Positions 1-27,707 of a DNA stretch of 64,000 nucleotides are shown here, piece after piece. This DNA comes from an uncultured Trueperaceae bacterium (lineage in GTDB: Bacteria; Deinococcota; Deinococci; Deinococcales; Trueperaceae). Below the pieces are notes generated by a model. It saw nothing but the letters and a program-made list of their open reading frames with translations, did no database searches and was not told the origin of the DNA. The stretch is taken from assembly GCA_963799485.1 (NCBI GenBank), contig CAWCXJ010000001.1, forward strand, positions 192,001 through 256,000, written 5' to 3'. Both the position numbers and the translations under genes were made by a program. Numbering within the stretch: the stretch's first letter is position 1; each line of letters starts with the position of its first letter.

Positions 1-288
1 GTCGTAGCGGTACATCTGCGCGGGCGCCAGGGTAATAAAATAGTCATTCAGAAACGAGCCGAAACGCCAGTTGCGCTGAATGTGTTCGGTCAAAGACTGC
101 GCCTTGTACTGCGTCAGGACGTACATTCCAAAGATTTCAGAGTTCATCATGTTGTTTAGGGCAAAGTCGATGATGCGGTACTTGCTGCCGAACGGCACGG
201 CGGGTTTCGAGCGTTTGGAAGTTAAAGGCTCGAGCCTCGTTCCCTTACCGCCTGCCAAGACCATGCCTAAAACTCGAGTCCGTTTCAT
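1..288 (-). CDS. glgC: Glucose-1-phosphate adenylyltransferase, N-terminal part (runs off window start)
   Basis: Manual translation from the ATG at 288 gives [46 protein letters not shown]...[10 protein letters not shown], the ADP-glucose pyrophosphorylase signature. Not in the ORF track. Confidence 0.93.
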
Positions 289-674
289 CACTGTTTCGTG
301 GTTCACGTGTCCGTCCCTTCGGCGCTCCCGGTACTGAGGCACCCGTGTTATCTCGTTTGTGAGCACTATAGCCTAACATGGTCTGCCGGGCGCACAGCTG
401 CGGCGCTATCAAGTTGTGTGAACGGTCGGGCTTGTGTGTGGCTTGGAGATGTAGAAGGCAGAATTGAGGGTATAGAAAACCCAAAGCTCCCCTTTTTCCC
501 TGCTTCTTCGCTGCGTATTCTTGCTCTTAATGACCGCAACCTCAAGCCTTGCATGTATACCCAAGCGCGCTTTAGTAGACGCTGGCAGGCACGAGAAAGC
601 CTTTCATAGTCGGACATCGGGTGAAAAGCTGAACATCGACAGTGATTCAAGGGTGTTCTTAGCAGCCTGTAGTA

Positions 675-6630: not shown

Positions 6631-6747
6631 ACGTCTAGCTTAGGACGTCCAGCGGCTCAACCAGGGGGCGCTCAGATAAGCGATACCGTGAGGTCGAGGA
6701 CGTGTGCTAGAGACGGCGATGACCCTAGGGTACAGACCAGACTCCCA

Positions 6748-7599
6748 CTAGATAAACCAGTAGACGACGGTATCGTAAAGTCCGGTGAGGACCAAGACGA
6801 TTCCGGCGAAGAGGGAGAGAGCACGGTTGGTGCGGCGCATCCCACCTATTACCTCACGCTTTGACCCCACTGTCCCCATCAGCCCCAGCATGAGCAGTAG
6901 GGGAACAGCGGTACCGAGAGCAAACAGTGCCGGGAATACGACGCCGGTACCCGAGGCAATCGCGGTAGGCAGCATCAAACCAAAGAAGAGCAAGAAAAGC
7001 GTCGGACAAAAGGCCAAACCAAAAGCGGAGCCTAGTGCGAAGGCCCCAGCACCCCCGCCCCGTGTTTCCGCCCAACTTCTCAGGTGCTGCGCGGCTCCTA
7101 TAGGTAAGGGCAGCTGTAGACGCAGCCAGCCGAACATGTAAAAGCCGATCAGGATCATCAGGGGTCCGATAACGCGGCGCACACCGATAAATAACGCGCC
7201 AGGTGCGCCGAATTCACCACCGAAAACCCAGATGGCGATACCTGCGAGCGTCAGGTAAACCAGCGTTTTTCCGGTCAAAAAGAGCCCTACTCGTCCCCAG
7301 CCACGACCGTGTACCGCATCTGAAGAAAAGTAGGCTATCGCAGCAGCGTTGGTCGAAAGCTGGCAGGGAGCGGTAGCTGCCATAAGTCCGAGCAAGAAAG
7401 CTCCCAGGGCCGGAATACCGAGTCCGAGACGGACGGTGTTGAGGGGGCCGGCCACCACCGCGTAGATGCTGCTGGCAAAGGTGTAAAGCTCGAGGGCGAG
7501 CGTCTTCACTTCTGGAACGTACATTTTAAGCGCTACCAACAGCAGTGCTGTACCAAGAAGAATTAAGGGGAGACGCAAATGACCGGTTACTCTCTGCAT
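6748..7599 (-). CDS. CcdA/DsbD-like membrane thiol-redox protein
   Basis: Multi-TM with APCQLSTN and FCPT cysteine motifs. GGAGG SD before the ATG at 7599. Confidence 0.8.
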   Translation of the reverse strand: MQRVTGHLRLPLILLGTALLLVALKMYVPEVKTLALELYTFASSIYAVVAGPLNTVRLGLGIPALGAFLLGLMAATAPCQLSTNAAAIAYFSSDAVHGRGWGRVGLFLTGKTLVYLTLAGIAIWVFGGEFGAPGALFIGVRRVIGPLMILIGFYMFGWLRLQLPLPIGAAQHLRSWAETRGGGAGAFALGSAFGLAFCPTLFLLFFGLMLPTAIASGTGVVFPALFALGTAVPLLLMLGLMGTVGSKREVIGGMRRTNRALSLFAGIVLVLTGLYDTVVYWFI

Positions 7600-7632
7600 G
7601 TAAACCTCCAACCTTAGTTGTAGAAAAGTAAT

Positions 7633-7649
7633 GTTAAGCTCGTATAAAC
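7633..7649 (-). promoter_or_regulatory. Third, degenerate copy of the putative regulator box
   Basis: Minus strand GTTTAT-acgag-CTTAAC upstream of the CcdA-like gene. Confidence 0.45.
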
Positions 7650-7896
7650 TTCAGTGGTCGCTGCATACCGATTCGGCTGTCTTTGCGGGTCTGCCCGCTA
7701 GGATGCTGCTTTAAGGCGTTGTTGCAAGCCTTTCAGCTATTTCTTCAGATGTTTATTGCTCTCCCCCGTAGCCTCCTAAAAGCCGCGCTATCTAGTTGTA
7801 GACGAAAGCTCCAGTCAGGCTGCGTTTCATAAAGTCTTGCACGTCGGTATATAGGTCTCAGCAGTACAGGTAGACTTGAGGATATGGAGGTTCTTG

Positions 7897-9282
7897 GTGA
7901 CTAAACATGACCTTATCGTAATCGGCGCGGGGCCTGGTGGCTACGTCGCCGCAATCCGCGCCGCGCAGCTTGGCTTCGACACAGCCTGCGTCGAGCAAGA
8001 ACCGGCACTCGGCGGCACGTGTTTGCGGGTCGGGTGTATTCCGAGCAAAGCGCTGTTGGAATCGTCAGAAAAGTATCTCGAGACGCAAGGCGCACTCAAA
8101 GAACACGGCATCGAGGTATCGGGAGCGTCTTTGAATTTGGCGAATATGCATAAGCGCAAAGACAAAGTGGTCAAGATGTTGACCGGCGGCGTTGCCGGAC
8201 TGTTCAAAAAGAACGGTGTGACGCGCTACGAAGGCACGGCGAGCTTTACTGCGCCGGGCAAACTTACGGTTTCCGGCAAAGACGGGGAGACGGAATTAGA
8301 GGCCGAGCGCATCATCATCGCGACGGGCTCTTCGAGCGTCACGTTGCCCGGTATTGAAATCGACGGTGAGCAGGTCGGCACCTCGACCGACGCGCTTGCT
8401 TACGACAAGGTACCCGAACATCTCGTCGTTATCGGCGCGGGGTATATCGGCCTCGAGCTGGGATCGGTCTGGAAACGTCTGGGTGCAAAAGTTACCGTGG
8501 TCGAATATCTAGACCGCATCTTGCCGGGGATGGACACTGAAATCGCCGCCGACGCCCTGAAGATATTTAAGAAGCAGGGGCTCGAGTTCAAACTCGGCGC
8601 AAAGGTCACCTCGGCAAAAGCGCAGGGTGATAAGGCCGTCGTCGAAATCGAAGGGCAAGCTGCTTTAGAGGCCGACCGGGTTTTGGTCGCCGTCGGGCGC
8701 AAACCGAATACGGACGGATTGAACGTGGGGGCAATTGGTTTGGAACTCGACAAACGCGGCTTTGTGCCGGTAGATGAGCACTTCAAAACCAAAATCTCAG
8801 GTGTTTACGCTATCGGCGACGTCATCGGCGGCACGATGCTGGCGCACAAGGCCGAAGAAGAGGGCATCGCCTGCGTCGAAGGGCTTGCGACCGGCGTGGG
8901 GCACGTCAACTACGGCGCGATTCCGGGCGTCGCCTACACCGAGCCGGAAATCGCCTCGGTCGGCAAGACCGAAGAGCAGCTCCAAGACGAGGGCGTTGAC
9001 TACAAAAAAGGGACGTTCCCGTTTGTTGCCAACGGACGGGCGCGGGCACTCGGCCACACCGACGGCAAGGTCAAGGTGTTGGCCGACGCGAAAACCGACC
9101 GCTTGCTGGGCGTGCATATCTTGGGCTCACGCGCGGGCGACCTGATTGCCGAGGCGGTTGCTGCTTTGGAGTTCGGCGCGTCGGCAGAAGACGTAGCCCG
9201 GACCTCTCACGCGCACCCGACTCTGGCAGAGGCGTTTAAGGAGGCGGCGCTGGCAGTCGAGGGGCGGGCGATTCACGTCTAG
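7897..9282 (+). CDS. lpdA: Dihydrolipoyl dehydrogenase
   Basis: GAGPGGY, GGTCLRVGCIPSK, LAHKAEEEG, HAHPTLAE. Confidence 0.97.
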   Translation: MTKHDLIVIGAGPGGYVAAIRAAQLGFDTACVEQEPALGGTCLRVGCIPSKALLESSEKYLETQGALKEHGIEVSGASLNLANMHKRKDKVVKMLTGGVAGLFKKNGVTRYEGTASFTAPGKLTVSGKDGETELEAERIIIATGSSSVTLPGIEIDGEQVGTSTDALAYDKVPEHLVVIGAGYIGLELGSVWKRLGAKVTVVEYLDRILPGMDTEIAADALKIFKKQGLEFKLGAKVTSAKAQGDKAVVEIEGQAALEADRVLVAVGRKPNTDGLNVGAIGLELDKRGFVPVDEHFKTKISGVYAIGDVIGGTMLAHKAEEEGIACVEGLATGVGHVNYGAIPGVAYTEPEIASVGKTEEQLQDEGVDYKKGTFPFVANGRARALGHTDGKVKVLADAKTDRLLGVHILGSRAGDLIAEAVAALEFGASAEDVARTSHAHPTLAEAFKEAALAVEGRAIHV

Positions 9283-10220: not shown

Positions 10221-11108
10221 ATGGCCCGTCCAGATCAAGACTACGAACGTTTTGTTCAGAATGTCTATCAAACGCTTTTGAATGCTGAAGGCAAAGATAC
10301 AGTTGAGGTCGAGAGAGATATCAAGCTTAAAGGTATAAGCGGGCAAGAACATCAGATTGACGTCTACTGGAAATACAAGCAGGCTGGCATAACTTACGAG
10401 ACTGCTGTCGAATGCAAACTATACAAGAAAACCGTTAATGTTGGCAGAATTAGAGATTTTCAGGGCGTTCTAACTGATATACGTGGCCTACGTGGAGTCT
10501 TTGCTACTAAATTGGGATATCAATCTGGCGCGAAGATGTACGCCAAAGCGTACAACATAAGACTGCTTGTAATCAGAGAACCTGAAGAGAAAGACTACGA
10601 TTGGAGAACTCTGAACGTAGAACTTTTTGGTTCGTATGCAAAATTGTTGAGAGAACGACTTCAAGTAATACCTGACTTGAATTGGTATTTGGCACAAGGG
10701 TTACATCCTGAAGATAGAGAAGTTGCAGTATCTGGAGACGGTTCAGATATCTTTCTGGAGAATAGGTCTACAGGTGAGCGAAAAACAATGCTCGACATCC
10801 AGCGAGAATTAGATATTTTTGCACAAAATTTAGTTGTGGGAGGCCAACACAGCCGAGTCTTTCCAAACGACAAAGAGAGAGACGAGAGATTTGAAGACAC
10901 CTGGCTCCATTTTTCAAAGGATGATTCTATAGAACCTGTCAAGATATCCCAGCTCGAGGTTCCTTACGTGGTCGCCAAAGGTTTTTGGGTATTTGAACTC
11001 GAGCAAGTAACAGAGAACCACCACGTAATCGTGCGGGATGATTTAGATGACGAGCATACATTTTATGACAAAGAAGGCCGCGAAACTGGCAAGAAGTTTC
11101 GCTACTAA
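10221..11108 (+). CDS. Mrr-like (PD-D/ExK) restriction endonuclease domain protein
   Basis: QIDV...AVECK...GYQSGA...A Mrr_cat pattern. AT-rich relative to its flanks. No methyltransferase nearby. Confidence 0.82.
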   Translation: MARPDQDYERFVQNVYQTLLNAEGKDTVEVERDIKLKGISGQEHQIDVYWKYKQAGITYETAVECKLYKKTVNVGRIRDFQGVLTDIRGLRGVFATKLGYQSGAKMYAKAYNIRLLVIREPEEKDYDWRTLNVELFGSYAKLLRERLQVIPDLNWYLAQGLHPEDREVAVSGDGSDIFLENRSTGERKTMLDIQRELDIFAQNLVVGGQHSRVFPNDKERDERFEDTWLHFSKDDSIEPVKISQLEVPYVVAKGFWVFELEQVTENHHVIVRDDLDDEHTFYDKEGRETGKKFRY

Positions 11109-11148
11109 CTATGCTCGCCAAAATTTAAGGGGCAATTGCGCCCCTTGC

Positions 11149-13659
<2,511 letters not shown>

Positions 13660-16445: not shown

Positions 16446-17381
16446 ATGACAGACATCTATACAGACATCTGTATGGTCGGGAGCGCTATGACAGACCTTA
16501 CGGTGCGGGTGCCGAGGCTGCCGGAACCGGGGGAGACGATCTTCGGTAGGGGCTTTTCTGAAGGTTTCGGCGGTAAAGGTTCGAATCAGGCGGTGATGGC
16601 GGCAAGGTTGGGGGCCAAAGTCAGCGTCGTCGTCAAGCTCGGTGGGGACGATTACGGCGACAAAACGCTGCAGAACTACCGCGCAGAAGGTATCGACACG
16701 GCGTTCGTCGGGCGGGCTCCCGGTGCGTCGGGTATTGCGCTGATTACGGTTGCAGAATCCGGCGAAAACGTGATTTCTCTTGCGCCGGGAGCCAACACGA
16801 CACTTTCTCCGGAAGACGTGGCGGGCGCGGCGGCGGCGGTGCAGGGGGCGGCAGTCTTGGTGGCGCAGCTCGAGACGCCCCTAGACGCGACCCTGGCGGC
16901 GTTTCGCCTCGCCAAAGGGGGAAAAACCCGAACCATCTTAAATCCGGCTCCGGCAGCCGAACTACCCGCCGAGCTGCTCTCATTGACCGATATCTTGATT
17001 CCTAACGAGGTCGAGGCGGGGATGCTCTTGGGACGGCGTGTGGGAACGCTCGAGGAAGCAGGGGAGGCTGCCGTGGCGCTGCTCGAGCTTGGCCCCAGAG
17101 CTGTAGTCATTACCCTGGGCAAACGCGGCGCACTCTTTGCCGGAACGGACGACGGGCCGCAGCATATTCCGGTAGACGCCGTAAACGCCGTCGATACGAC
17201 GGGTGCAGGCGACGCCTTTGTCGGGTCGCTCGCATATTTTTCTGCCTGTCAACCCAACCTGCCGTTTAGGGAAGCCGTGACCAGGGCCTGCCGCCTTGCG
17301 GCGCTCACCGTCGAGAAGTCCGGCGCACAAAGTTCGTACCCGCAGCGCGTAGAGGCAGCCGCTATTGTCGAAGCCACTTGA
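16446..17381 (+). CDS. rbsK: Ribokinase
   Basis: GGKGSNQA, QLETP, NPAPA, PNEVE, DTTGAGDAF. Confidence 0.92.
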   Translation: MTDIYTDICMVGSAMTDLTVRVPRLPEPGETIFGRGFSEGFGGKGSNQAVMAARLGAKVSVVVKLGGDDYGDKTLQNYRAEGIDTAFVGRAPGASGIALITVAESGENVISLAPGANTTLSPEDVAGAAAAVQGAAVLVAQLETPLDATLAAFRLAKGGKTRTILNPAPAAELPAELLSLTDILIPNEVEAGMLLGRRVGTLEEAGEAAVALLELGPRAVVITLGKRGALFAGTDDGPQHIPVDAVNAVDTTGAGDAFVGSLAYFSACQPNLPFREAVTRACRLAALTVEKSGAQSSYPQRVEAAAIVEAT

Positions 17382-17594: not shown

Positions 17595-18962
17595 GTGACG
17601 CAACTTAGTCTGACAGCTCTAGAAGAACGTTTTAGTGAGCTCAAACCTCCGCTGAGCGCACGTGAAGCGAAGCTCGAGGCCAACCGTTGCCTCTACTGTT
17701 TCGACGCGCCCTGTATAAGCGCGTGTCCGACCAGTATCGATGTGCCGACGTTTATCCGCAAAATTTCAACCGACAACGTGACCGGGGCCGCCGTAACCAT
17801 TTTGGAAGCCAACCTGATAGCGGCAACCTGCGCCCGCGTCTGCCCGGTCGAAGAGCTGTGCGAAGGGGCGTGTGTTTTAGGCGGCGACCACAAACCCATC
17901 GAAATCGGGCGGTTGCAGCGTTATGCGATGGACTATATCTACGAAAAGCAAAAATTGCCGTTTACTCCGGCCCCTGCCAACGGCCTGCGTGTCGCGGTCG
18001 TCGGCGCCGGCCCGGCAGGGCTTTCGTGTGCGGGCGAGCTCGCCAAGCTCGGCTACGCGGTTACGGTTTTCGAAAAAAACCCGCTCCCCGGCGGGTTGTC
18101 CACCTACGGCATCGTGGTGATGCGAGAACCGATTCGGGTGGCGTTAGAAGAAGTTGCGCTTGTCGAGGCGCTCGGGGTAGAGGTCAAAACGGGCGTCACG
18201 GTCGGGCAAGACGTGAGCGCCGACGAACTTTTAAGCGATTTCGACGCGGTGTTTCTAGGTGTCGGGATGGGGTCGGTGCCGCATCTGGGGATTCCCGGCG
18301 AGGAGTTAGAGGGCGTCACTGAGGCGTTATCGTTTATCGCCGAAACCAAACTCGCCGAAAAAGACGGGTTGGAGCACCTGCGAGCGCTCCCTGTCGGGCG
18401 GCACGTCGCCGTAATCGGCGCGGGCAACACCGCTATCGACGCGGCGACGATTGCCAAACGGTTGGGCGCGGAGCGCGTGACGCTCGTTTACCGGCGCGGC
18501 GAAGACCAGATGACGGCCTACGACTTTGAGTACAGCTTTATCAAGCATGAGGGCGTGGAGTTTCGGTTTCTCAGTCAGCCGCTGCGCATTTTGGGTGAAA
18601 ACGGGCGGGTCGTGGGGCTCGAGTGCCTCCGCGTCGAACTCGGCGCACCCGGACCCGACGGGCGGGCGCTCCCTGAACCCGTAGCGGGCAGCGAGTTCGT
18701 CATCCCCTGCGACCAAGTGATTAAAGCGATTGGGCAAGAAAAACGCTTTGACCTGTATGCTCATTTCGGCTTGGAGCAAAACCGCGGCTACCTCGAGGTA
18801 AACGAAAACTTGCGCACTACGAACCCCAAAATCTTTGCGGGCGGCGACTGTATCCGCGCCACCGGCGACGCGATGACCGTCACCGCGACGCAGGACGGTA
18901 AAATCGCGGCGCAGGGTATTCACGCGCAGCTTTCTCCCGAAGCCGCCGATACACTACACTAG
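17595..18962 (+). CDS. preT: Dihydropyrimidine dehydrogenase, GltD-like subunit
   Basis: RCLYCFDAPCISACP, CARVCPVEELCEGAC, GAGPAG, GAGNTAID. Operon context. Confidence 0.9.
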   Translation: MTQLSLTALEERFSELKPPLSAREAKLEANRCLYCFDAPCISACPTSIDVPTFIRKISTDNVTGAAVTILEANLIAATCARVCPVEELCEGACVLGGDHKPIEIGRLQRYAMDYIYEKQKLPFTPAPANGLRVAVVGAGPAGLSCAGELAKLGYAVTVFEKNPLPGGLSTYGIVVMREPIRVALEEVALVEALGVEVKTGVTVGQDVSADELLSDFDAVFLGVGMGSVPHLGIPGEELEGVTEALSFIAETKLAEKDGLEHLRALPVGRHVAVIGAGNTAIDAATIAKRLGAERVTLVYRRGEDQMTAYDFEYSFIKHEGVEFRFLSQPLRILGENGRVVGLECLRVELGAPGPDGRALPEPVAGSEFVIPCDQVIKAIGQEKRFDLYAHFGLEQNRGYLEVNENLRTTNPKIFAGGDCIRATGDAMTVTATQDGKIAAQGIHAQLSPEAADTLH

Positions 18963-18965
18963 TCT

Positions 18966-19415
18966 ATGGACACCTTGGCGAAACCAACCTACGAAGAGGA
19001 CTTCGTGCTGTGGCTCGAGCATCAAGCTGAACTTTTACGGCAAGGGCGCGTGGGTGAGCTTGACCTTGAAAACCTGGCCGAGGAGGTTGACGACATCGGA
19101 CGGAGCCAGCGGCGTGCGGTCGAAAGCGAACTCACTATCATTCTCATTCACCTGCTCAAATATCAGTTTCAGCCCTCAAAACGGAGCCGCAGCTGGCTGG
19201 ACACCCTGCTCGAACACCGTGGGCGCTTGGCTAGAGACTTTCGCGTCAGTAAGAGCTTAAGGTTTCACGCGGAAACTGAGCTAGCTGACCTTTACAGGCT
19301 TGCCCGTAAACGGGCTGCAGTTCAAACGCGACTGCCGCTCACCACGTTTCCTGAAACCAGCCCCTACACCCTCGAGCAAACCCTAAACGAAGACTTTTTC
19401 CCGGAGGGCTCTTGA
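18966..19415 (+). CDS. DUF29 family protein
   Basis: YEEDFVLWLEHQAELL...LDLENLAEEV...HLLKYQFQP...SW...FPETSPYTLEQTLNEDFFP. Confidence 0.92.
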   Translation: MDTLAKPTYEEDFVLWLEHQAELLRQGRVGELDLENLAEEVDDIGRSQRRAVESELTIILIHLLKYQFQPSKRSRSWLDTLLEHRGRLARDFRVSKSLRFHAETELADLYRLARKRAAVQTRLPLTTFPETSPYTLEQTLNEDFFPEGS

Positions 19416-20770
19416 TGGCTGACCTTGCTACCAATTTTTGCGGCGTTAAAAGCCCCAACCCGTTCTGGCTCGCGTCGGCCCCGCCAACGAACACTGCGTA
19501 CCAAATCAACAAAGCGTTCGAGTACGGTTGGGGCGGTGCGGTTTGGAAGACTATCGGCACACCTGTTCTGAACGTCTCGTCACGGTACGGCGGCTGGGAG
19601 TATAACGGCAACAAGCTGGCTGCCATCAACAACATCGAGCTGATTTCGGACAGGCCGCTAGCCGTAAACCTGCGCGAAATCGCCGAGGTCAAACGGCTCT
19701 GGCCTGAGCGCGCCGTCATCGTCTCGGCGATGTTCGAGTCCGACCCGAAGGTTTGGGCCGACGCCGTAAAACGCATCGAGGATACCGGCGCGGACGCCAT
19801 CGAACTCAACTACGGCTGCCCACACGGCATGTCGGAGCGCGGCATGGGTTCAGCCGTCGGGCAAGTTCCGGAATACTGCACGATGATTACCGAGTGGGTC
19901 ACGTCGGTGGCGAGCATCCCCGTAATCGTCAAATTGACGCCGAACATCACCGACATCAAGATGCCCGCTCGAGCTGCAATAGATGGTCACGCAAATGCTT
20001 TATCACTCATCAACACGATTAACTCGGTGGTTGGGGTAGATTTGGATTCGTTTCAACTCCGGCCCAACGTCGGTGGTAAAGGTGGACACGGCGGTTACGC
20101 GGGGCCCGCCGTAAAACCGATTGCGCTCAGTATGCTCAGCGAAGTGATGCAACTGCCTGAAACGCAGCGTTATCAGATTCCGGTTTCGGGTATGGGCGGC
20201 ATTCAAACCTGGCGCGACGCCGCCGAGTTTCTTCTTTTAGGTGCAACGAGTTTGCAGGTCTGCACGGCGGTCATGCACTACGGCTTTCGCCTCATCGAAG
20301 ACCTGACCGACGGTTTATCGAACTGGTTGGACGATAAAGGTGCTACCAGCATCCAGGAAATTATCGGCGCGTCGGCCCCGCGCTATTCACCCTTTAACGA
20401 ACTCGATCTGTCATACAAAGTCGTCGCGCGAATTGATGAGCGCACGTGTATCAACTGCAACCTCTGCTTTGTGGCGTGTGATGAGGGCGCGCATCAGTGC
20501 ATCGACCTGACCGTAAACGGCGCGAAAATCGACCCGGCGACGTATCGCGGCGACGTAAAAGCACAACCTGTAGTGCGTGAAGACGACTGCGTGGGGTGTA
20601 ACCTCTGCTCGCTGGTGTGTCCGGTAGACGGCTGCATTTCGATGATTGAGATGCCTTCGGGTAGAGATTCCGTGACCTGGGGCGAGATCACGGCGGAGCA
20701 GCCGGAAGTGACCAGTCAGTGGGACGAGATGGAACGTTACCGGGCGGCAAAAGGTATCGAAATTCACTAG
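19415..20770 (+). CDS. preA: Dihydropyrimidine dehydrogenase, FMN/4Fe-4S subunit
   Basis: NPFWLASAPPT, ELNYGCPHGMSERGMG, KLTPN and two CxxCxxC ferredoxin motifs. Confidence 0.96.
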   Translation: MADLATNFCGVKSPNPFWLASAPPTNTAYQINKAFEYGWGGAVWKTIGTPVLNVSSRYGGWEYNGNKLAAINNIELISDRPLAVNLREIAEVKRLWPERAVIVSAMFESDPKVWADAVKRIEDTGADAIELNYGCPHGMSERGMGSAVGQVPEYCTMITEWVTSVASIPVIVKLTPNITDIKMPARAAIDGHANALSLINTINSVVGVDLDSFQLRPNVGGKGGHGGYAGPAVKPIALSMLSEVMQLPETQRYQIPVSGMGGIQTWRDAAEFLLLGATSLQVCTAVMHYGFRLIEDLTDGLSNWLDDKGATSIQEIIGASAPRYSPFNELDLSYKVVARIDERTCINCNLCFVACDEGAHQCIDLTVNGAKIDPATYRGDVKAQPVVREDDCVGCNLCSLVCPVDGCISMIEMPSGRDSVTWGEITAEQPEVTSQWDEMERYRAAKGIEIH

Positions 20771-20806
20771 CCTCGAGCAAAGATTTTCTGAGAGTATGAT
20801 TCTGCC

Positions 20807-21073
20807 ATGACCAAAACGCTCCTCAAAACCGCCCCCGACGGCAGCGTCACCATCCCCAAGGAGCTTTTGGGCGACGCCCCACCCGGTACGGCATTTCGCT
20901 TAGAGCGTGAGGGAAAGGTGCTGCGGCTCGAGCCCGCCCCCCGTAAACTCCACGAGATTAAAGACCCGGAGGAGCGCGCAAGAGCCGTCGATGACTTCAT
21001 GAACCGTATCGCTCACAAAACCGGTGTGGACTGGCCCGAAAATTATAACTTCAGAGATGATATCTACGACTAG
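20807..21073 (+). CDS. AbrB/MazE-type antitoxin (VapB-like)
   Basis: DGSVTIPKEL...GKVLRLEP swapped-hairpin pattern. Stop overlaps the PIN gene start. Confidence 0.75.
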   Translation: MTKTLLKTAPDGSVTIPKELLGDAPPGTAFRLEREGKVLRLEPAPRKLHEIKDPEERARAVDDFMNRIAHKTGVDWPENYNFRDDIYD

Positions 21074-21513
21074 TGCGTTATCTCCTCGATACGAATATCG
21101 TGCTGAGAACCGTTAATCCAGACAATGGGCTCTATCCGATGGTGTCTCGAGCCGTCCAGAATCTCTCTATTCAAGGCCACGAACTTGTTATCGTGCCCCA
21201 AGTTATCTATGAGTTTTGGTCGGTAGCAAGTAGGCCCGCGACCGTCAATGGTTTCGGTTGGCCATTAACAACTGTCCGCACGGTCATCAATGACTTAATG
21301 CAGGAATGGACACTTTTAGATGATACCCCGGAAGTTTTTGACCTTTGGCTCGAGCTTGTCACCACCCACCAGGTTTCAGGTAAACAGATTCACGACGCCC
21401 GGTTAGCTGCGTCGCTAAAAGCGCACGACGTTGAAGCTCTGCTGACCCTTAACGGCGACGACTTCAGTCGCTTCGACGTCCGCGTCGTCCATCCCCAAGA
21501 AGTGGCAGAATAA
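21073..21513 (+). CDS. PIN-domain toxin (VapC-like)
   Basis: YLLDTNI, QVIYEF, IHDARLAA, LLTLNGDDF. Confidence 0.92.
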   Translation: MRYLLDTNIVLRTVNPDNGLYPMVSRAVQNLSIQGHELVIVPQVIYEFWSVASRPATVNGFGWPLTTVRTVINDLMQEWTLLDDTPEVFDLWLELVTTHQVSGKQIHDARLAASLKAHDVEALLTLNGDDFSRFDVRVVHPQEVAE

Positions 21514-21540
21514 ACGAGCAACAGCAGCAAGGAGGATTGT

Positions 21541-22920
21541 ATGGCGCTACTTATCCAAAACGGCGAAATCATCACCGCCGACAAGCGTACCAAAGCCGAC
21601 ATCTACATCGAAGACGAAACGATCACTGAAATCGGTGAAAACTTAGAGGTTCCCGAAGGCACCGAGGTCATAGACGCTTCAGGAAAATATGTATTCCCCG
21701 GTTTTATCGACCCGCACGTGCATATCTATCTGCCGTTTATGGGCACCTATAGCAAAGACACGCACGCTAGCGGCTCGCAGGCGGCGCTTTTTGGCGGCAC
21801 CACGACCTTTATCGAGATGTGCGCCCCGGCAGGGAGTGAAGATACGCTCGCGGGTTACCAGCACTGGAAATCTCTGGCGGAGGGCAACGCCGCGTGTGAC
21901 TACGCCTTTCACATGGGCGTCACCCGCTTCGATGAGCAAACCGAAATGCAGCTCCGCGAGATTGTCGCGGACGGTACGGCGTCGTTCAAGGTCTTTTTGG
22001 CCTATAAAGGTGCTTTTAGCTTGGGCGATGAGGAGCTTTACAAAACGTTGACGCTCGCTAAAGAACTCGGCGTCATCACCACGGCGCACACCGAAAACGC
22101 CGAGCTGGTCGCGCAGCTGCAGCAAAAACTTTTGCGTGAGGGCAAAACCGGCCCCGAATGGCACGAACCGAGCCGCCCGGAATACGTCGAGGCGGACGGC
22201 GTGCATCACTTTACGACGTTTCTAGAAGCAACCGGCGCAAGGGGGTATATCGTTCACCTGTCGTGTGAACCGGCTTTGGACGCAGCTTTGGAAGCGAAGG
22301 CAAGGGGCGTCAACGTCTCCATCGAAGCGGTTATTCCCCACCTGTTACTTGACAAAACCTACGCTGAACGCCCCGACTTCGAGGGCGCAAAACACGTCAT
22401 GAGCCCGCCCTTACGTGACAAACGCAATCAGGCCGTACTCTGGGAGGCGTTAGAACGCGGCGACATCAGCACCGTCGGTACCGACCACGCGCCGTTTGAT
22501 ACGACTCAGAAGGCGATGGGCAAGGGCGACTTTACAAGGATTCCCAACGGCATCCCGGCGATTGAAGACCGGGTGAACCTGCTCTATACCTACGGGGTCT
22601 CGAGGGGCGGCCTAAACATCCACCGGTTTGTAGACGCCGCCAGCACGCAAGCTGCCAAGCTGTTCGGCCTCTATCCCCGTAAAGGCACTGTAGAAGTCGG
22701 CAGTGACGCCGATTTGGTGATTTACGACCCCGAGTATCGCGGCACATTATCCGTTAAAACGCAGCATATGAACGTCGACTACAGCGGCTTTGAAGGCGTT
22801 GAAATAGACGGCAAACCCGAAGTCGTGACGGTGCGGGGCGTGGTTCAGGTTAGAGACGGGCAGTTCGTCGGGGACAAGGCGAGAGGCAAGTTTTTACGGC
22901 GTGAGACGCTAGGCGGTTAG
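21541..22920 (+). CDS. hydA: Dihydropyrimidinase (D-hydantoinase)
   Basis: PGFIDPHVH, SFKVFLAYK, HTEN, GTDHAPF, IPNG. Confidence 0.96.
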   Translation: MALLIQNGEIITADKRTKADIYIEDETITEIGENLEVPEGTEVIDASGKYVFPGFIDPHVHIYLPFMGTYSKDTHASGSQAALFGGTTTFIEMCAPAGSEDTLAGYQHWKSLAEGNAACDYAFHMGVTRFDEQTEMQLREIVADGTASFKVFLAYKGAFSLGDEELYKTLTLAKELGVITTAHTENAELVAQLQQKLLREGKTGPEWHEPSRPEYVEADGVHHFTTFLEATGARGYIVHLSCEPALDAALEAKARGVNVSIEAVIPHLLLDKTYAERPDFEGAKHVMSPPLRDKRNQAVLWEALERGDISTVGTDHAPFDTTQKAMGKGDFTRIPNGIPAIEDRVNLLYTYGVSRGGLNIHRFVDAASTQAAKLFGLYPRKGTVEVGSDADLVIYDPEYRGTLSVKTQHMNVDYSGFEGVEIDGKPEVVTVRGVVQVRDGQFVGDKARGKFLRRETLGG

Positions 22921-22921
22921 C

Positions 22922-23734
22922 TTGACGGTGCAAACGCAGTCGCAAAGCCAGAGCCGGCGCTCAGAAAGTTCTCCGGTTATCTCAATCCGTGACTTGTCGA
23001 TGGTCTATAAAGCCAGGGCAGGGGAGACAGTAGCGCTGCAAAACGCTAATTTGACGGTTCAGGGGGGCGAATTTATCAGCCTCATCGGGCCTTCGGGGTG
23101 CGGCAAAACGACGCTTTTACGGCTGATTGCCGACCTCATCGAACCGACCTCCGGTGAACTGCGCGTTGCGGGCAAAACGCCCCGGGAGGCGAGGGGGGCG
23201 CGCGAGTACGGTTACGTCTTTCAGGCTCCGGTGTTATACGAGTGGCGCACCGTGATTAAAAACGTGATGTTGCCTCTAGAGATCATGCGGTTTCCCAAAG
23301 CCGAGCAGCGGGAGCGGGCTTCACGTTTACTCAAACTCGTCGGTCTGCAAGATTTTCACAACCAATACCCGTTTCAACTCTCCGGCGGGATGCAGCAGCG
23401 CGTTTCGATTGCCAGAGCTCTGGCCTTCGACCCCAAGCTGCTCTTGATGGACGAACCTTTTGGTGCGCTCGATGAAATCACCCGCGAGAGCATGAACGAC
23501 GAGCTCCTGCGTATCTGGCAAGAGACGCATAAAACGGTGGTATTTGTGACCCACTCAATCCCTGAAGCAGTTTTTTTATCGTCGCGTATCGTGGTGATGA
23601 CGCCGCGTCCCGGCAAGATTGAACGCGTTATCGAGGTGGATTTGCCCTATCCGAGAGACGAAAGCGTGCGCGAGTCGCGGCGCTTTTTCGAGCTGACGAC
23701 CGAGGTGCGCGAAGCGCTTAAAGGAATGCACTAG
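22922..23734 (+). CDS. ABC transporter ATP-binding protein (NitT/TauT type)
   Basis: GPSGCGKT, LSGGMQQR, LLMDEPFGALD. Confidence 0.96.
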   Translation: MTVQTQSQSQSRRSESSPVISIRDLSMVYKARAGETVALQNANLTVQGGEFISLIGPSGCGKTTLLRLIADLIEPTSGELRVAGKTPREARGAREYGYVFQAPVLYEWRTVIKNVMLPLEIMRFPKAEQRERASRLLKLVGLQDFHNQYPFQLSGGMQQRVSIARALAFDPKLLLMDEPFGALDEITRESMNDELLRIWQETHKTVVFVTHSIPEAVFLSSRIVVMTPRPGKIERVIEVDLPYPRDESVRESRRFFELTTEVREALKGMH

Positions 23735-23735
23735 G

Positions 23736-25577
23736 GTGCGAAAGAGGGTTTCTGCCTTTTTCCCTGTTTTGTTAGTCCTTATCGGCCTAATTTTGCTCGG
23801 CTATCCACTGGCGCTGCTATTTGGTTTACCTTTGGCTCTAAGAGACATGCGCGATTTGCGAAAGTGGGACAAAGCGACGGTGACGGCGAGACCGCCACAG
23901 CAACTCGAGGGTAGAACGACCTTAACTTTTACCAACGCGGCAGAAAAAGGTGTCCTTGTTCGGGACGGCGCGCCGCTGCGGATGCTCTATGCTCAGTCGG
24001 GTGCAGACGTAACGCTGGACGCAGAACCTACCGCGCCGCTCGTAACCTGGGGTGAAACGTTGACCCCGGTATCGGCGACGCTTTACCGGTACCCCGGCGA
24101 GTTACCCGACCCTTTGATGCTCTATGTCGGCAATAAGCTCTTGGTAGAGGGCGCGACCCCGGCTGCCGAAACGCCCGATGATGTGCGCACGACGTTTACC
24201 TTCGGCGACGCGTCCGGCCCTGTGTTGCTGGACGACGAAGTTTTGGCTGAAGGTCAATACACCGTTCAGGGCGACGCGCTGACTTTTACCAAAGCGCCAA
24301 GTTTTGGGAGCGTTTTACGGCGCGTTACGGATGATTACGCGGTTTTAGACGAGGGTAAAAGCACCGTCGTTTTTACGGCACCGCCGCAGGGAGCGGTGCG
24401 CGCCGTAAAGAGTGTCGTCCGGCTTGCCGAGCGCCTTTCGGGAGACGCAGACGGGACGAACCGCACGTTTACCTTTGCCCAAACACCCGTCGCCGAGACC
24501 GAACCCTACGACGTTTATGTGGACGGTACGCTTTTGTCAAGCGACGATGAGCGCCCGAACGAGCGGGTAGACGGTGAGCAGAAAACGTTTACCTTTGAAA
24601 GTAGCGAAGGAATCGTTACGGTAGACGGTGCGCCGCAAACCGAGGGCGAAGCCTATACGCGGGACGGTTTTACGGTGACGTTTGCCCAAGCGCCCGCCCG
24701 TAACGCGCAGCTCCGGCAGTATCCGGGTGCGTTTTTGAGCAATTTTGAAACAGGTGAAGTGCTGCTGGCCCGGACGCCTCCGGTGGGTGCAACGGTCTGG
24801 ACGGACGCTTACACGATCTACGCGCAACCGGGCTGCGGGGCAAACGTCATAGCGTGTTTTCTGGCCCTGCCGCAACATCCGGTGCCCTTTCCGCACTGGA
24901 TTGCTGCGCGCGTCGTCCCGTTTTTCGATAAGTTTCCGCTCGCTGATGAGCGCAACATCGTTCGGGCGGTGCTCTATACGGCTGCCGGAACGCTTTCGGC
25001 GCTGGCGCTCGGGGCGGCGGTCGGAACGCTGCTGGCGGTGCTGTTTGTGCTGGTGAGGCCCGTGGAGCGCGCCCTCTTGCCGTGGCTCGTCGCGTCGCAA
25101 ACGGTGCCGATTATCGCGCTCGTACCGGTGTTGCTGCTGATTTTGGGTAACGCGGGTATCACCATTCAAACATCGCTATTACCGACGGCGCTCATCGGCG
25201 CGTATATTGCGTTTTTTCCAGTCGTTGTCGGTACCGTAAAAGGTTTGCGCTCGGTTGACCCGCTGTCACTCGATTTGATGAAATCCTACGCGGCGACGCC
25301 CGTGCAGCTTTTTCTAAAGGTGCGGTTTCCGGCGGCGGTGCCGTTTTTGTTTACCTCGCTCAAACTGGCGGCGGCGGCGGCGCTCGTCGGGGCGCTCGTC
25401 GCTGAAACCGAATCGAACAACCGGCGTGGTTTAGGCTTTCAGATTTTGGGTCAGGTGCAGTCCGGCAACGTGGCGGACGTGTGGATTTTGCTGCTGATTT
25501 CGGCGCTCTTGGGGATTGGGCTCGTCGGGCTCGTCGGTTTGTTGCAACGCTTTATCGCACCGTGGGAGCGTTCGTGA
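23736..25577 (+). CDS. ABC permease with a very large extracytoplasmic beta-repeat insertion
   Basis: C-terminal ~200 aa is a TauC-type permease (SQTVPIIAL, GLRSVD, KVRFPAAVP). Residues ~50-360 are soluble beta repeats. Confidence 0.9.
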   Translation: MRKRVSAFFPVLLVLIGLILLGYPLALLFGLPLALRDMRDLRKWDKATVTARPPQQLEGRTTLTFTNAAEKGVLVRDGAPLRMLYAQSGADVTLDAEPTAPLVTWGETLTPVSATLYRYPGELPDPLMLYVGNKLLVEGATPAAETPDDVRTTFTFGDASGPVLLDDEVLAEGQYTVQGDALTFTKAPSFGSVLRRVTDDYAVLDEGKSTVVFTAPPQGAVRAVKSVVRLAERLSGDADGTNRTFTFAQTPVAETEPYDVYVDGTLLSSDDERPNERVDGEQKTFTFESSEGIVTVDGAPQTEGEAYTRDGFTVTFAQAPARNAQLRQYPGAFLSNFETGEVLLARTPPVGATVWTDAYTIYAQPGCGANVIACFLALPQHPVPFPHWIAARVVPFFDKFPLADERNIVRAVLYTAAGTLSALALGAAVGTLLAVLFVLVRPVERALLPWLVASQTVPIIALVPVLLLILGNAGITIQTSLLPTALIGAYIAFFPVVVGTVKGLRSVDPLSLDLMKSYAATPVQLFLKVRFPAAVPFLFTSLKLAAAAALVGALVAETESNNRRGLGFQILGQVQSGNVADVWILLLISALLGIGLVGLVGLLQRFIAPWERS

Positions 25578-26488
25578 GGGCGCTCGCGGCTACCACCGTC
25601 ACGCTGCTGGGTTTTGCCGGAGCGTTCTGGACGGTTACGGGCGACGTTACGCCAACGTACTGGCTTCGGTTCTGGGGCTTTTTGCTGCTCGCGTGTGCCG
25701 CGGCGGGGCAGGGGGGGCGTTCACGTTTGGGACAGCTCTTGCTCCCGGCAGCGGTGCCGTTCGTCTTACTGCTTTTGTGGCAAGGTCTGGTCGTCGGTTT
25801 CGGCGTCCCCAAAGGCATTTTTCCAAGTGTGACCGACGTCTGGTCGTCGCTTTCGGCAACATTTCCGGTGCTTGTCAGAGACGCTTATGTGACGTTCGTC
25901 AAAGAGATTTTGCTCGGATTTGCGATTGGGTTTACGGCGGGTGTCTTGGCGGGCATCGGGGTTGCCGGAAGTGTTTTTTTGCAACGCGGGTTTCTGCCGC
26001 TGGCGGCGGCGTTCGGGGCGGTGCCGATTGTCGGGCTGGCTCCGGTCTTGGGCCGCGCGTTCGGCGTCGGGTGGGAGTCGAAGGCGGCGGTGGTCGTCAT
26101 CGTCACGTTTTTTCCGGTGTTGCTCAACACGGTGCAGGGGCTGTTGTCGGTTGATGTACTCAAGCTCGAGCTCCTCCGCGCCTACGCCGCCAAACCGTGG
26201 GAAGTCTTTGTCAAGTTGCGTTTACCCAACGCTGCGCCGTATCTGTTCAACGCACTTCGGCTCGCGGTTGTCTTGTCGATTGTCAGCGTGATCGTCGCCG
26301 AGTTTTTGATTCCGGGGCCGCCCGAGGGCTTGGGTCAGCGCATCTCGCTCTCGGCGCGGCGGGGGGCGTATGATGTGGTGTTCGCCGCCATTTTCGTCTC
26401 GAGCCTCGTCTCTATCGTTCTCTACAACGTCGTCGCCTGGGCAGAGCGGCGCACGACCCGCTGGCACGCGTCGTTTAGGGAAGACTGA
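25574..26488 (+). CDS. ABC permease (TauC/SsuC type)
   Basis: FFPVLLNTVQGL, KLRLPNAAPYLF, IVAEF. GTG overlaps the upstream stop. Confidence 0.92.
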   Translation: MRALAATTVTLLGFAGAFWTVTGDVTPTYWLRFWGFLLLACAAAGQGGRSRLGQLLLPAAVPFVLLLLWQGLVVGFGVPKGIFPSVTDVWSSLSATFPVLVRDAYVTFVKEILLGFAIGFTAGVLAGIGVAGSVFLQRGFLPLAAAFGAVPIVGLAPVLGRAFGVGWESKAAVVVIVTFFPVLLNTVQGLLSVDVLKLELLRAYAAKPWEVFVKLRLPNAAPYLFNALRLAVVLSIVSVIVAEFLIPGPPEGLGQRISLSARRGAYDVVFAAIFVSSLVSIVLYNVVAWAERRTTRWHASFRED

Positions 26489-26660: not shown

Positions 26661-27707
26661 ATGAAGCGAATTTTAGTCGGTTTGGGAATACTGCTCCTTT
26701 CGGGTTTAGTGTCGGCCCAAGACCTCATCGACGTGACCTTCCAGTCCAAGTGGTTTCCCCAAGCGCAGTTCGCGGGCTACTTTGTGGCGCAGGCCAAAGG
26801 CTTTTACGAAGAAGAAGGGCTGAACGTCACGGTGTTAGACGGCGGTAACGTCAACCCGACCGTACAGGTCGCTTCGGGCAACGCCGACTTCGGCACCGAC
26901 TGGATCGCCAACATGCTGGTGCAACGTGAACAGGGCCTAAACGTCGTGCAGATCGCGCAGATTTACCAGGCTTCGGGCTACCGGATGGTCGCTCTCAACG
27001 ATTCGGGTATCGAAAGTTTTGCCGACCTTGCGGGCCGCACCGTCGGTGTTTGGGGTTTTGGCAACGAGTTCGTCGCCCAGGCGGTTTTCGCGGCTGAAGA
27101 CATCACCTCCGACCTCGACCCGACCGTCACCGACCCGGACGTAAACGCCGTCGTCTACGCGTTCGACCCGTCTTTGGTGTTTCCCAACGAGGTTGACGTC
27201 GCCTCGGCGATGACCTACAACGAACTCGATCAGATCGTCGGGCTCGGCTATGGGCTGGACACGCTGACCCTGCTCGACCCCGCCGACATCGACGCGGCTT
27301 TGCTCGAGGATTTGATCTTCACCACCCCCGAACTCTTACAAAATCCCGACTTTAAGGGCTCCGGCGTTTCGGGCCGTGAGGTTGCCGAGCGCTTTTTACG
27401 CGCGACGATCAAGGGCTGGGAATACGCGGTTGCCAATCAAGAAGAGGCGGTCAGCATTGTTTTAGAGTCGTGCGGTGACACCTGTGCCGGGTCGGGCAGC
27501 ACGCAGAGCCCGCAGATTCACCAGACCTGGCAGATGGCCCGCGTCGCCGAACTCGTCGCGCCGGAAGACGACACCCGCGTAGGTGCGCTGAACGAAGAGG
27601 CGTTCAACCGCTCCGTTGAACTGCTGAACCAAGTCGGCCTGCTCTCCGAGCCGGTTGCGTATAGTGACGTAGTAGACGAAAGTGTATACGACGCTGTAGC
27701 ACAGTAG
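26661..27707 (+). CDS. NMT1/THI5-family substrate-binding protein
   Basis: Signal peptide, KWFPQAQFAGYFVAQAKGFYEEEGLNV, AMTYNE. AAGGAGG SD. Confidence 0.93.
   Translation: MKRILVGLGILLLSGLVSAQDLIDVTFQSKWFPQAQFAGYFVAQAKGFYEEEGLNVTVLDGGNVNPTVQVASGNADFGTDWIANMLVQREQGLNVVQIAQIYQASGYRMVALNDSGIESFADLAGRTVGVWGFGNEFVAQAVFAAEDITSDLDPTVTDPDVNAVVYAFDPSLVFPNEVDVASAMTYNELDQIVGLGYGLDTLTLLDPADIDAALLEDLIFTTPELLQNPDFKGSGVSGREVAERFLRATIKGWEYAVANQEEAVSIVLESCGDTCAGSGSTQSPQIHQTWQMARVAELVAPEDDTRVGALNEEAFNRSVELLNQVGLLSEPVAYSDVVDESVYDAVAQ

Follow-up and report, generated by a model that had tools for sequence, protein, structure and literature searches.

The locus considered here raises the question of how a catabolic importer came to carry, in one loop of one of its permeases, a large repetitive domain of a type known from phage tails, and of what such a domain could do in that place. 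The stretch of DNA that was analysed, called the window, comprises 64,000 nucleotides from an uncultured Trueperaceae bacterium (assembly GCA_963799485.1, contig CAWCXJ010000001.1, positions 192,001 to 256,000), and the element in question is perm1, a permease of an ATP-binding cassette (ABC) importer encoded in an open reading frame (ORF) at 23736..25577 on the forward strand. A first-pass annotation, made from the sequence alone, had singled out this first permease of the system as unusually long and had noticed about 310 soluble residues behind its first transmembrane helix (TM1). Both observations are confirmed: the ORF encodes 613 amino acids (aa), and about 330 soluble residues are found by hydropathy, the sole Pfam match being BPD_transp_1 (PF00528), which covers aa 427-609 and scores 62.7 bits (cut-off 26.4). 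Taken as one joint claim, it is very probable that perm1 is the permease of a pyrimidine-operon importer whose ectodomain was gained in the ancestor of the Trueperaceae orthologues, from a phage-type unit that was multiplied by self-insertion and by duplication of the resulting pair.

Hydropathy places a single N-terminal helix inside aa 1-36 of perm1, and the next hydrophobic stretch begins only at aa 411. The insert, about 325-330 soluble residues of all-beta character, reaches from TM1 to the rest of the membrane domain. Alignment with insert-less orthologues from sister families of the order (coded f2, f3 and f5 below) locates the insertion in the TM1-TM2 loop, past TM1 and just ahead of a C-x6-C hairpin and an LPxP motif, where a linker of about 18 residues in these orthologues corresponds to one of about 325 in perm1. 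The insert-less orthologues share the gene order, the same C-x6-C and LPxP after TM1, and a membrane domain that is 46-53% identical. Insert-bearing and insert-less orthologues (L034, L035, L036) have in common, within the first periplasmic loop, the C-x6-C hairpin and the LPxPxxP that comes after it. The cysteines of the hairpin, C367 and C374, are the only ones within aa 1-400; both are invariant and probably form a periplasmic disulfide. The ectodomain itself should be periplasmic, given the established topology of six-TM BPD_transp_1 permeases. The parts of the gene are as follows.

23736..25577, forward strand: perm1, ABC importer permease with ectodomain; GTG start 1 base past the stop of the ATPase gene
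23757..23843, forward strand: TM1 (about aa 8-36), from hydropathy; its motif, YPLALLFGLPLA, is nearly invariant among homologues
23859..23885, forward strand: strand beta0 (aa 42-50), which probably opens the outer sandwich of module B; from model strand E5-11, the short forms of the protein and the alignment to the phage chain 8gtc_G
23886..24038, forward strand: unit0 (aa 51-101), a free copy of the unit and the least conserved part; hhalign probability of about 95% to inner A and inner B
24039..24149, forward strand: N-terminal half of outer A (aa 102-138), from profile comparisons
24150..24329, forward strand: inner A (aa 139-198), an intact unit inside outer A; hhalign to inner B and structural (VIA) matches on model residues 100-159
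24330..24410, forward strand: C-terminal half of outer A (aa 199-225); once joined, outer A matches the likewise joined outer B and, across the junction, inner A
24411..24545, forward strand: N-terminal half of outer B (aa 226-270), from profile and structural alignment
24546..24725, forward strand: inner B (aa 271-330), the most conserved unit; from conservation and a VIA Z of 7.6 to 9efk_AE
24726..24830, forward strand: C-terminal half of outer B (aa 331-365), from profile and structural alignment
24831..24860, forward strand: C-x6-C hairpin (C367, C374), an ancestral element in the first periplasmic loop and outside the phage-like module; both cysteines are invariant and the hairpin is present in insert-less orthologues
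24861..25574, forward strand: canonical membrane domain with the LPQHPVPFP motif, TM2-TM6 and BPD_transp_1 (Pfam)

The repeated pattern reported by the annotation is borne out, far beyond chance, by profile-profile comparison (hhalign) of sub-alignments of 69-76 homologues, in which each E-value refers to a single pairwise comparison. Module A (aa 102-225) aligns to module B (aa 227-357) with a probability of 99.5% (E 1.9e-22), inner A to inner B with 99.3% (E 2.8e-20), and unit0 to inner A and inner B with 94.8% (E 5.1e-8) and 95.7% (E 9.6e-9), respectively. Once the halves of the outer units are joined, outer A and outer B match each other (97%, E 1e-10), and the alignments of inner A with joined outer A (95.4%, E 1.8e-8), of inner A with joined outer B (96%, E 3.8e-9) and of inner B with joined outer B (89%, E 2.1e-6) all run across the junction. 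BLASTP of the insert against itself detects no repeat; the repeats are old, and profiles are needed to see them. Because units and joined halves align in this way, the insert can be described as five copies of one beta-sandwich unit of about 55 aa, two of which are split by another copy, in the order beta0, unit0, A(outer[inner]), B(outer[inner]), with module B next to the membrane. The individual units marked in the annotation and its two nested pairs stand, with residue numbers that were about 5 too low (TPDDVRTTFTF runs from aa 146 and VDGEQKTFTF from aa 278), and the fifth, un-nested unit at aa 51-101 had been overlooked.

Predicted structures agree with this arrangement. The AlphaFold2 model of aa 40-375 (76 sequences) is all beta with a pLDDT of 95.8 and a pTM of 0.88, and that of module B alone reaches 92.7 and 0.84; the geometry of the insert was taken from structural alignments of the models (VIA), not from coordinates. 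The two flanks of module B (model 6..136, 66 residues aligned, the 60-residue inner unit being skipped) superpose on the contiguous residues 97-174 of 8gtc_G, a distal-tail/baseplate entry of roseophage R4C, with a Z of 7.5, a root-mean-square deviation (rmsd) of 1.9 A and 24% identity. Since both flanks fit one contiguous domain of 78 residues, the superposition supports the nesting directly, and with the junction-crossing profile alignments it upholds the earlier claim that the units are nested. Matches to 8gtc_G have a Z of 7.4-7.5 and 24-25% identity overall. With the whole insert, 73 residues over model 7..323 are aligned, 7 more than the 66 obtained without beta0, and in the short forms beta0 stands directly before module B; for these reasons, unit0 and module A are suggested to be themselves inserted into the outer sandwich of module B, after beta0.

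The inner unit, too, finds its structural neighbours among virion parts. Inner B (model 46-105) aligns to the LME-1 portal-tail complex chain 9efk_AE (Z 7.6, rmsd 1.7 A, 58 aa), the N-terminal region of CBA120 tailspike 4 (7rfv_A, Z 7.0), the DT57C neck (8hqo_R, Z 6.4) and Carin-1 (8ck1_B, Z 6.2), and the complete inner unit aligns to the N-terminus of T7 gp17 (7boz_a) with a Z of 5.1-5.2, in the 'middling' range of the tool (rmsd 1.9 A, 58-59 aa). All 13 chains with a Z of at least 5 to the whole insert are parts of phages, viruses or contractile injection systems, and so are the tail parts that make up 30 of the 32 top rows for module B, where ordinary immunoglobulin (Ig) domains appear only below a Z of 4. 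A chain of a gene transfer agent (GTA), 6tba_2A, has a Z of 3.7 to the insert. In BFVD, which holds viruses only, Foldseek gives 20 matches at E<=1e-3, among which tail fibre, baseplate wedge and tailspike proteins are numerous, and the ESM Atlas look-alikes of module B, the best at 0.88 and under the 0.9 line, include a Phage_T7_tail cluster, which serves as a lead only.

The sequence link to phage tail proteins is a remote one. The insert stays below every Pfam threshold: its best matches are CBM_X2 (PF03442; 13.4 bits against a gathering score of 28.9, E 0.087) and Shr-like_HID (E 0.11), PF03906 (Phage_T7_tail) gives no match even at E<=10, and PF09343 (DUF2460) and TIGR02217 do not match. 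A precomputed PF03442 match is recorded in 9 of 79 homologues. Among the PHROGs families, the insert of the window matches phrog_18673, a tail fibre family, at E 1.1e-4, and a set of 27 orthologous inserts contains five that match phrog_10330, three that match phrog_18673 (best 1.3e-6) and three that match phrog_2710. A profile of these 27 inserts, searched against 1.84 billion representative proteins, retrieves 107 proteins at E<=1e-3, with whole-library E-values down to 7e-14; about two dozen are the transporter family and its fragments, and the rest match mostly over the inner-unit region, in 2-7 stretches.

Fifty of the matched proteins were scanned for known families (P0097-P0152 minus the six fragment-like single-stretch matches P0098-P0101, P0105 and P0142). 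Pfam recognises Phage_T7_tail and CBM_X2 in 18 proteins each, DUF2460 in 7, DUF4183 and collagen repeats in 6 each, and GPW_gp25, T4_gp9_10_N, Phage_gp53 or Phage_fiber_2 in a few. A phage-specific Pfam family is present in 27 proteins and no Pfam family in 11, while non-phage families alone occur in four: a giant cadherin-type adhesin, an RHS protein, a HYR protein and an odd exonuclease/CobW protein. PHROGs (E<=1e-5) assign tail or virion-structural families to 41 of the 50, and this labelling is not circular, because many of the proteins have separate baseplate-wedge or fibre domains beyond the repeats. The stretch matched by the insert profile is the stretch that Pfam assigns to Phage_T7_tail or DUF2460 in several proteins, among them P0118, P0134, P0146, P0149, P0116 and P0117, with PF03906 coinciding in, for example, the first four of these. 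The DUF2460 matches in the seven proteins are partial (profile positions about 125-173 of 205), and two exceed the cut-off (P0119, P0128). One bridging protein, P0104, matches genes that are annotated as tail fibres in cultured phages, with 71% identity in Pelagibacter phage Mosig and a further match in Synechococcus phage S-H38; the cluster members of ten bridging proteins bear no informative names. Searches with tblastn against 50,697 phage records returned no match for the insert and none for P0097, and the insert profile had no match at E<=10 among PDB sequences. Beyond the transporter family, the whole nested module gave only partial, weak alignments, the best being P0128 (E 1.4e-5), over the inner unit and the C-terminal half of the outer one. 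In P0108 and P0114 the unit period is about 122-128 aa, close to the size of a nested pair, with only the C-terminal half matched, and nested units may thus also exist in phage fibres. P0131 (324 aa, with DNA_pol_B_exo2 and CobW matches) contains one 35-residue stretch that matches the inner-B profile (i-E 2.9e-15) and looks like a chimeric or frame-shifted metagenomic ORF.

The N-terminal domain of T7 gp17 (PF03906) and the repeats of phrog_18673, phrog_2710 and phrog_10330 are by profile, and probably also by fold, the same small beta-sandwich unit, although they are arranged in tandem in soluble, usually trimeric virion proteins, whereas the units of perm1 lie nested in one loop of a membrane permease. 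The PF03906 domain sits at the N-terminus of the virion fibre, which it attaches to the tail, a position not shared by the unit inside a permease loop. A closer parallel in this respect is the Dit protein of roseophage vB_DshS-R4C, where the unit is known as an inserted domain, as in perm1; it is similar to the T7 fibre's N-terminus, and saccharide binding is a role on which the authors speculate (PMC10276861). This insertion domain is presumably what was matched in 8gtc_G. The annotation had called the pattern typical of phage or GTA tail and baseplate domains (DUF2460/TIGR02217-like, T7-like). This holds for remote relationship and not for strict membership, since no Pfam or NCBIfam threshold is reached for PF03906, PF09343 or TIGR02217. 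Its further proposal of a domesticated virion module stands as far as kinship with a phage-type unit goes; the direction of transfer, for which no close phage donor was found, is a matter of parsimony. Capture by the host is the parsimonious reading because the unit is widespread in phage proteins and the five-unit arrangement, beyond phages, occurs only in one Trueperaceae transporter, and transfer was thus probably from phage to host.

The distribution of the insert points to a gain in a single family. A word-index search with aa 40-375 as the query found 79 proteins at E<=1e-3, of which 77 carry PF00528 and the other two are one truncated and one frameshifted copy; seven of the 79 are short forms (433-437 aa), whose coverage of the insert is limited to its last ~43%. 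When 364 Deinococcota genomes, in families coded f1 (Trueperaceae) to f6 and including, for the tallies only, the unpublished genome G325, were scanned in six frames, the insert was found in 84 of 127 genomes of f1, and in none of 19 in f3, 23 in f4, 68 in f5 and 1 in f6. Two hits among the 125 genomes of f2 (E 4e-5 and 4e-4) both lie inside GAF/PAS histidine kinases and were taken as chance. The genome of the window has a single copy. Among sequencing runs, none of RNA is listed as containing the sequence, and the eight DNA runs that are listed contain only small shares of its words (0.06-0.13). When the same genomes were searched with the membrane domain alone (aa 376-613), the matches in f1 (73-95% identity) all lay in long open frames, bar a few cut by contig ends, and the f1 genera without the insert (e.g., g16, g23) also lacked this permease at E<=1e-30. 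The closest permeases of f2, f3 and f5 (46-53% identity) are mostly found in frames of ~290-350 aa, the normal length. The search of Deinococcota orthologues that the annotation had proposed thus gives a clear picture: within the phylum the insert is limited to Trueperaceae and, on this distribution, is a lineage-specific gain.

Within the family, conservation rises towards the membrane. Among 35-42 distant orthologues, identity to the window is 30% for unit0, 31-38% for outer A, 44% for inner A, 41-45% for outer B, 59% for inner B and 79% for the membrane domain. Inner B has the invariant residues R273, E276, R277, G280, F285, F287, G292, R309, P320, R322, N323 and R327, and the polar ones in or around it form a cluster (R273, E276, R277, R309, R322, N323, R327). 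Every family orthologue found keeps at least module B, there are no stops in the insert, and no reversion to a short loop was seen among the Trueperaceae orthologues found. The short forms retain exactly module B and lack unit0 and module A. In a maximum-likelihood tree of the membrane domain (75 family members and three insert-less outgroups, with P0025, P0040, P0051 and P0073 omitted as truncated or outside the motif filter), all seven short forms fall into one clade of 13 (SH-aLRT 96) within the diversity of the long forms; the root is unsafe, as the outgroup branch measures 4.45 changes per column. Because their clade nests among long forms, the short form looks like a deletion of unit0 and module A.

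The transporter belongs to a run of genes on the forward strand that reads GltD/PreT-like subunit (17595-18962), small ORF, PreA, PIN/VapC, dihydropyrimidinase, ATPase, perm1, perm2 and NMT1/THI5-type binding protein.

17595..22920, forward strand: catabolic genes (GltD/PreT-like subunit, small ORF, PreA, PIN/VapC, dihydropyrimidinase), from Pfam/NCBIfam
22922..23734, forward strand: ABC ATPase of the same transporter (ABC_tran), from Pfam/NCBIfam
25574..26488, forward strand: perm2, the second permease (BPD_transp_1); likely GTG start at 25574, the longest ORF beginning at 25481
26661..27707, forward strand: NMT1/THI5-type substrate-binding protein, with a signal peptide and without a lipobox cysteine

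PreA, a dihydropyrimidine dehydrogenase, scores 649 bits against NF006183, and the match of the dihydropyrimidinase to TIGR02033 reaches 519 bits. Binding proteins of the NMT1/ThiY type have pyrimidine-like ligands. The label 'pyrimidine' for the transporter is drawn from its neighbourhood, as it is based solely on the adjoining genes of pyrimidine catabolism. The NCBIfam equivalogs SaoP, NtrB, SsuC and TauC score 18-53 bits against perm1, all below their cut-offs of 209-347, and by these scores perm1 belongs to a subfamily separate from them. The order PreT-PreA-dihydropyrimidinase-ATPase-perm1-perm2-binding protein is kept in 11 of 11 loci examined, three of them insert-less (from among f2, f3 and f5) and eight from Trueperaceae with long and short forms. 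A GTG at 25574-25576 shares bases with the stop codon TGA of perm1 (25575-25577), the two together reading GTGA, and a GGGAG precedes them by a few bases, so that perm2 probably starts at 25574 (304 aa) and not at 25481.

Several other features of the region were observed. Starting from 25574, perm2 still has ~55 N-terminal residues with two hydrophobic stretches ahead of its canonical first helix. In a short-form genome (L038, G257; 6715-7902), 396 columns are needed to align the perm2 orthologue to the 335-aa query, and perm2 thus seems to have gained about 60 residues there by insertion. Another short-form genome (L037, G260) has ~2.3 kb of extra DNA between the dihydropyrimidinase and ATPase genes and ~1.7 kb between those of perm2 and the binding protein (about 5210-7549 and 10746-12505). 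In the window, a PIN/VapC-type gene (21073-21513, forward strand; TIGR00028 E 1e-6, under the cut-off) splits PreA from the dihydropyrimidinase; by tblastn it is present in the two closest relatives (L001, L002) and absent from L003 and eight more distant loci. A ribokinase gene (16446-17381, forward strand; TIGR02152, 318 bits, over the cut-off) lies just upstream of the PreT-like gene and hints that the region may serve nucleoside as well as base catabolism.

Large periplasmic domains on type I importers are known from the maltose system of Escherichia coli. According to a review of MalFGK2-MalE, the Ig-like P2 domain of MalF is periplasmic, projects about 3 nm and binds MalE with micromolar affinity, and the P1 loop of MalG touches MalE throughout the cycle (PMC6906923). 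On this description, MalF P2 is, like the perm1 insert with its all-beta model and predicted periplasmic side, a large periplasmic beta-sandwich in a permease loop, and MalG P1 occupies the same topological position (TM1-TM2 of the six-TM core). The systems differ in that MalF P2 consists of one domain only (about 185 aa), placed between TM3 and TM4 in a sugar-type importer, whereas perm1 has five repeats over about 325 aa between TM1 and TM2 and is of the NitT/TauT type; moreover, the unit of perm1 is of another, phage-associated kind, and binding of the substrate-binding protein (SBP) is proposed for it by analogy. In OpuA and GlnPQ, a substrate-binding domain is fused to the permease. A Bdellovibrio MalF-MalE fusion is a further importer of this type (PMC6906923). 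These fusions also place an extra extracytoplasmic module on the membrane domain of a type I importer. Their module is the binding protein itself, whereas the perm1 system has a separate NMT1-type binding protein and an insert without an SBP fold. The annotation knew of no transporter with this architecture, and the literature search, whose coverage excludes most subscription journals, found no such permease described; a large periplasmic beta-sandwich on a type I importer permease was, however, already known in MalF P2. What is new, as far as seen, is the type of unit, the place of insertion, the arrangement of five repeats in which two pairs are nested, and the clean gain at the level of a family.

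A mechanism can be proposed along these lines. On the very probable reading given at the outset, perm1 is one of the two permeases of a binding-protein-dependent ABC importer encoded with reductive pyrimidine catabolism (PreT/PreA, dihydropyrimidinase). In the ancestor of the Trueperaceae orthologues, its short first periplasmic loop would have gained, between TM1 and the C-x6-C hairpin, an all-beta ectodomain whose building block is a ~55-aa beta-sandwich of a kind that recurs in phage tail fibres, baseplate proteins and tailspike N-termini. Growth would have proceeded by placement of one unit inside a loop of another, followed by duplication of the nested pair, which would leave module B as the membrane-proximal part that is always kept, and unit0 with module A as a dispensable distal extension. 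The ectodomain may then form a rigid arm beside the docking site of the NMT1-type binding protein on the perm1/perm2 heterodimer and capture or orient that protein, as MalF P2 and MalG P1 do for MalE, with the invariant Arg/Glu/Asn cluster of inner B as the putative contact surface. This role of a docking or capture arm, argued by analogy, is held tentatively and falls somewhat short of being probable. A functional role is favoured by the climb of conservation from unit0 to inner B, by the invariant polar residues and by the retention of module B.

Several results weigh against this account. The structural Z values of 5-7.6 are 'middling' by the scale of the tool, on which values under 8 are common, and Foldseek against the PDB gave no match at E<=1e-3 for the whole insert or module B, its weak top rows being phage tail entries; the check with AlphaFold and Foldseek proposed in the annotation thus yielded the confident all-beta repeat model and no PDB match at that level. 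A predicted complex of the ectodomain with the mature binding protein (residues 20-348), run without controls, gave scores of 0.23 and 0.14 where the mark is 0.32, and speaks neither for docking nor against it. Comparison of insert-bearing with insert-less genomes reveals no indel or additional feature of the binding protein that would be specific to the lineage, and this protein is 74-95% identical among its best 120 homologues, compared with about 40-80% for the insert, a gap unlike that expected for a large co-evolving interface. The arm is unnecessary for the basic mechanism, because insert-less orthologous transporters exist in sister families. Some of the invariant residues may be structural, since the ERP..DG and R pattern partly recurs at the outer/inner junction of module A. 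Finally, the passages considered of the R4C study treat the phage unit as an element of tail attachment or carbohydrate binding and not as an SBP docking site (PMC10276861).

Other explanations start from the same observations; the annotation had offered a periplasmic scaffold, an SBP tether, an envelope anchor and a phage decoy as candidate roles. The ectodomain might bind peptidoglycan, a secondary wall polymer or a periplasmic glycan and so fix or space the importer relative to the thick wall of the Deinococcota type, using the carbohydrate-binding capacity that has been proposed for such units on phage tails. The weak CBM_X2 similarity already described for the insert, for nine homologues and for 18 of the 50 related phage proteins would fit an anchor of this kind, as would the saccharide binding speculated for the T7-fibre-like insertion domain of R4C Dit (PMC10276861) and the variation of the distal units in length and sequence, which is that of a surface-exposed, adhesin-like array. 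Still, no CBM family reaches its threshold, a conserved aromatic platform is not evident (the invariant aromatics are the core positions of F-x-F), conservation is highest near the membrane and not at the distal end, and carbohydrate binding by the phage units is itself only proposed, so that an envelope anchor seems rather unlikely. A little less credible is a passive decoration, that is, a phage-type array settled in a tolerant loop, which stabilises the folding or assembly of perm1/perm2 or shields the loop and has no specific ligand. Sequence change in the insert is much faster than in the membrane domain (distant orthologues share 30-59% and 79% identity, respectively), one clade lost unit0 and module A yet kept the transporter, the conserved charged residues at the outer/inner junctions, which partly recur in module A, suggest structural salt bridges, and Ig-like decorations of phage proteins are described as products of promiscuous transfer (PMC10276861). 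Mere tolerance is harder to reconcile with the presence of module B in every family orthologue found, with 16-27 invariant positions across the alignments, and with the lack of any Trueperaceae orthologue that has a short loop again.

A role connected with phages themselves is very improbable. The arm would mimic the attachment module of a tail fibre and either intercept incoming tail tips in the periplasm, excluding the phage, or serve the phage as a receptor on the inner membrane; the only points in favour of this are that the unit is homologous to tail parts of virions and that the distal units evolve faster. The domain is predicted to lie in the periplasm, on an inner-membrane catabolic transporter, and is vertically inherited, which suits a decoy poorly. 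It occurs in every family genome that has the transporter, the patchy turnover typical of defence genes is not seen, the operon offers no defence context, and the genome of the window contains no second copy and no related prophage fibre detectable with the insert as query. A broader version, in which a domesticated tail-fibre array, built as a unit within a unit within a unit, gives the importer a new activity, be it a physical tether to glycan or peptidoglycan of the envelope or contact, in the periplasm, with the tail tips of phages, is unlikely as well. The suspicion that the protein is an artefact, either a chimeric assembly or two genes read as one, could draw on the public gene call (P0002), which starts at Met38, comprises 576 aa and would drop TM1 (window 23736-23849). 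The TM1 motif upstream of Met38 is nearly invariant, however, for which reason the GTG at 23736 is preferred as the start, and the GC content along the gene is unremarkable. Chimeric assembly, named in the annotation as a possible flaw, was looked for and is excluded, because the same architecture, in one continuous stop-free frame, is found in 84 of 127 other family genomes, single-contig genomes included. The comparative data have already refuted this explanation, and the chance that it holds is negligible.

As a rule, type I ABC importers are minimal; the exception described in review is the P2 loop of MalF. In Trueperaceae, a whole family keeps an ectodomain of 150-330 aa, made of virion-type units, on a catabolic transporter, and sister families run the same operon without it; a natural comparison set of long, short and insert-less forms exists for this reason. 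The nested pairs are a clear and confidently modelled case of domain growth by self-insertion, as the N- and C-termini of the unit lie close together. If the arm docks the binding protein, docking arms would have arisen repeatedly, and from modules that are not related; should it bind parts of the envelope or of phages, this would be a new function for an importer.

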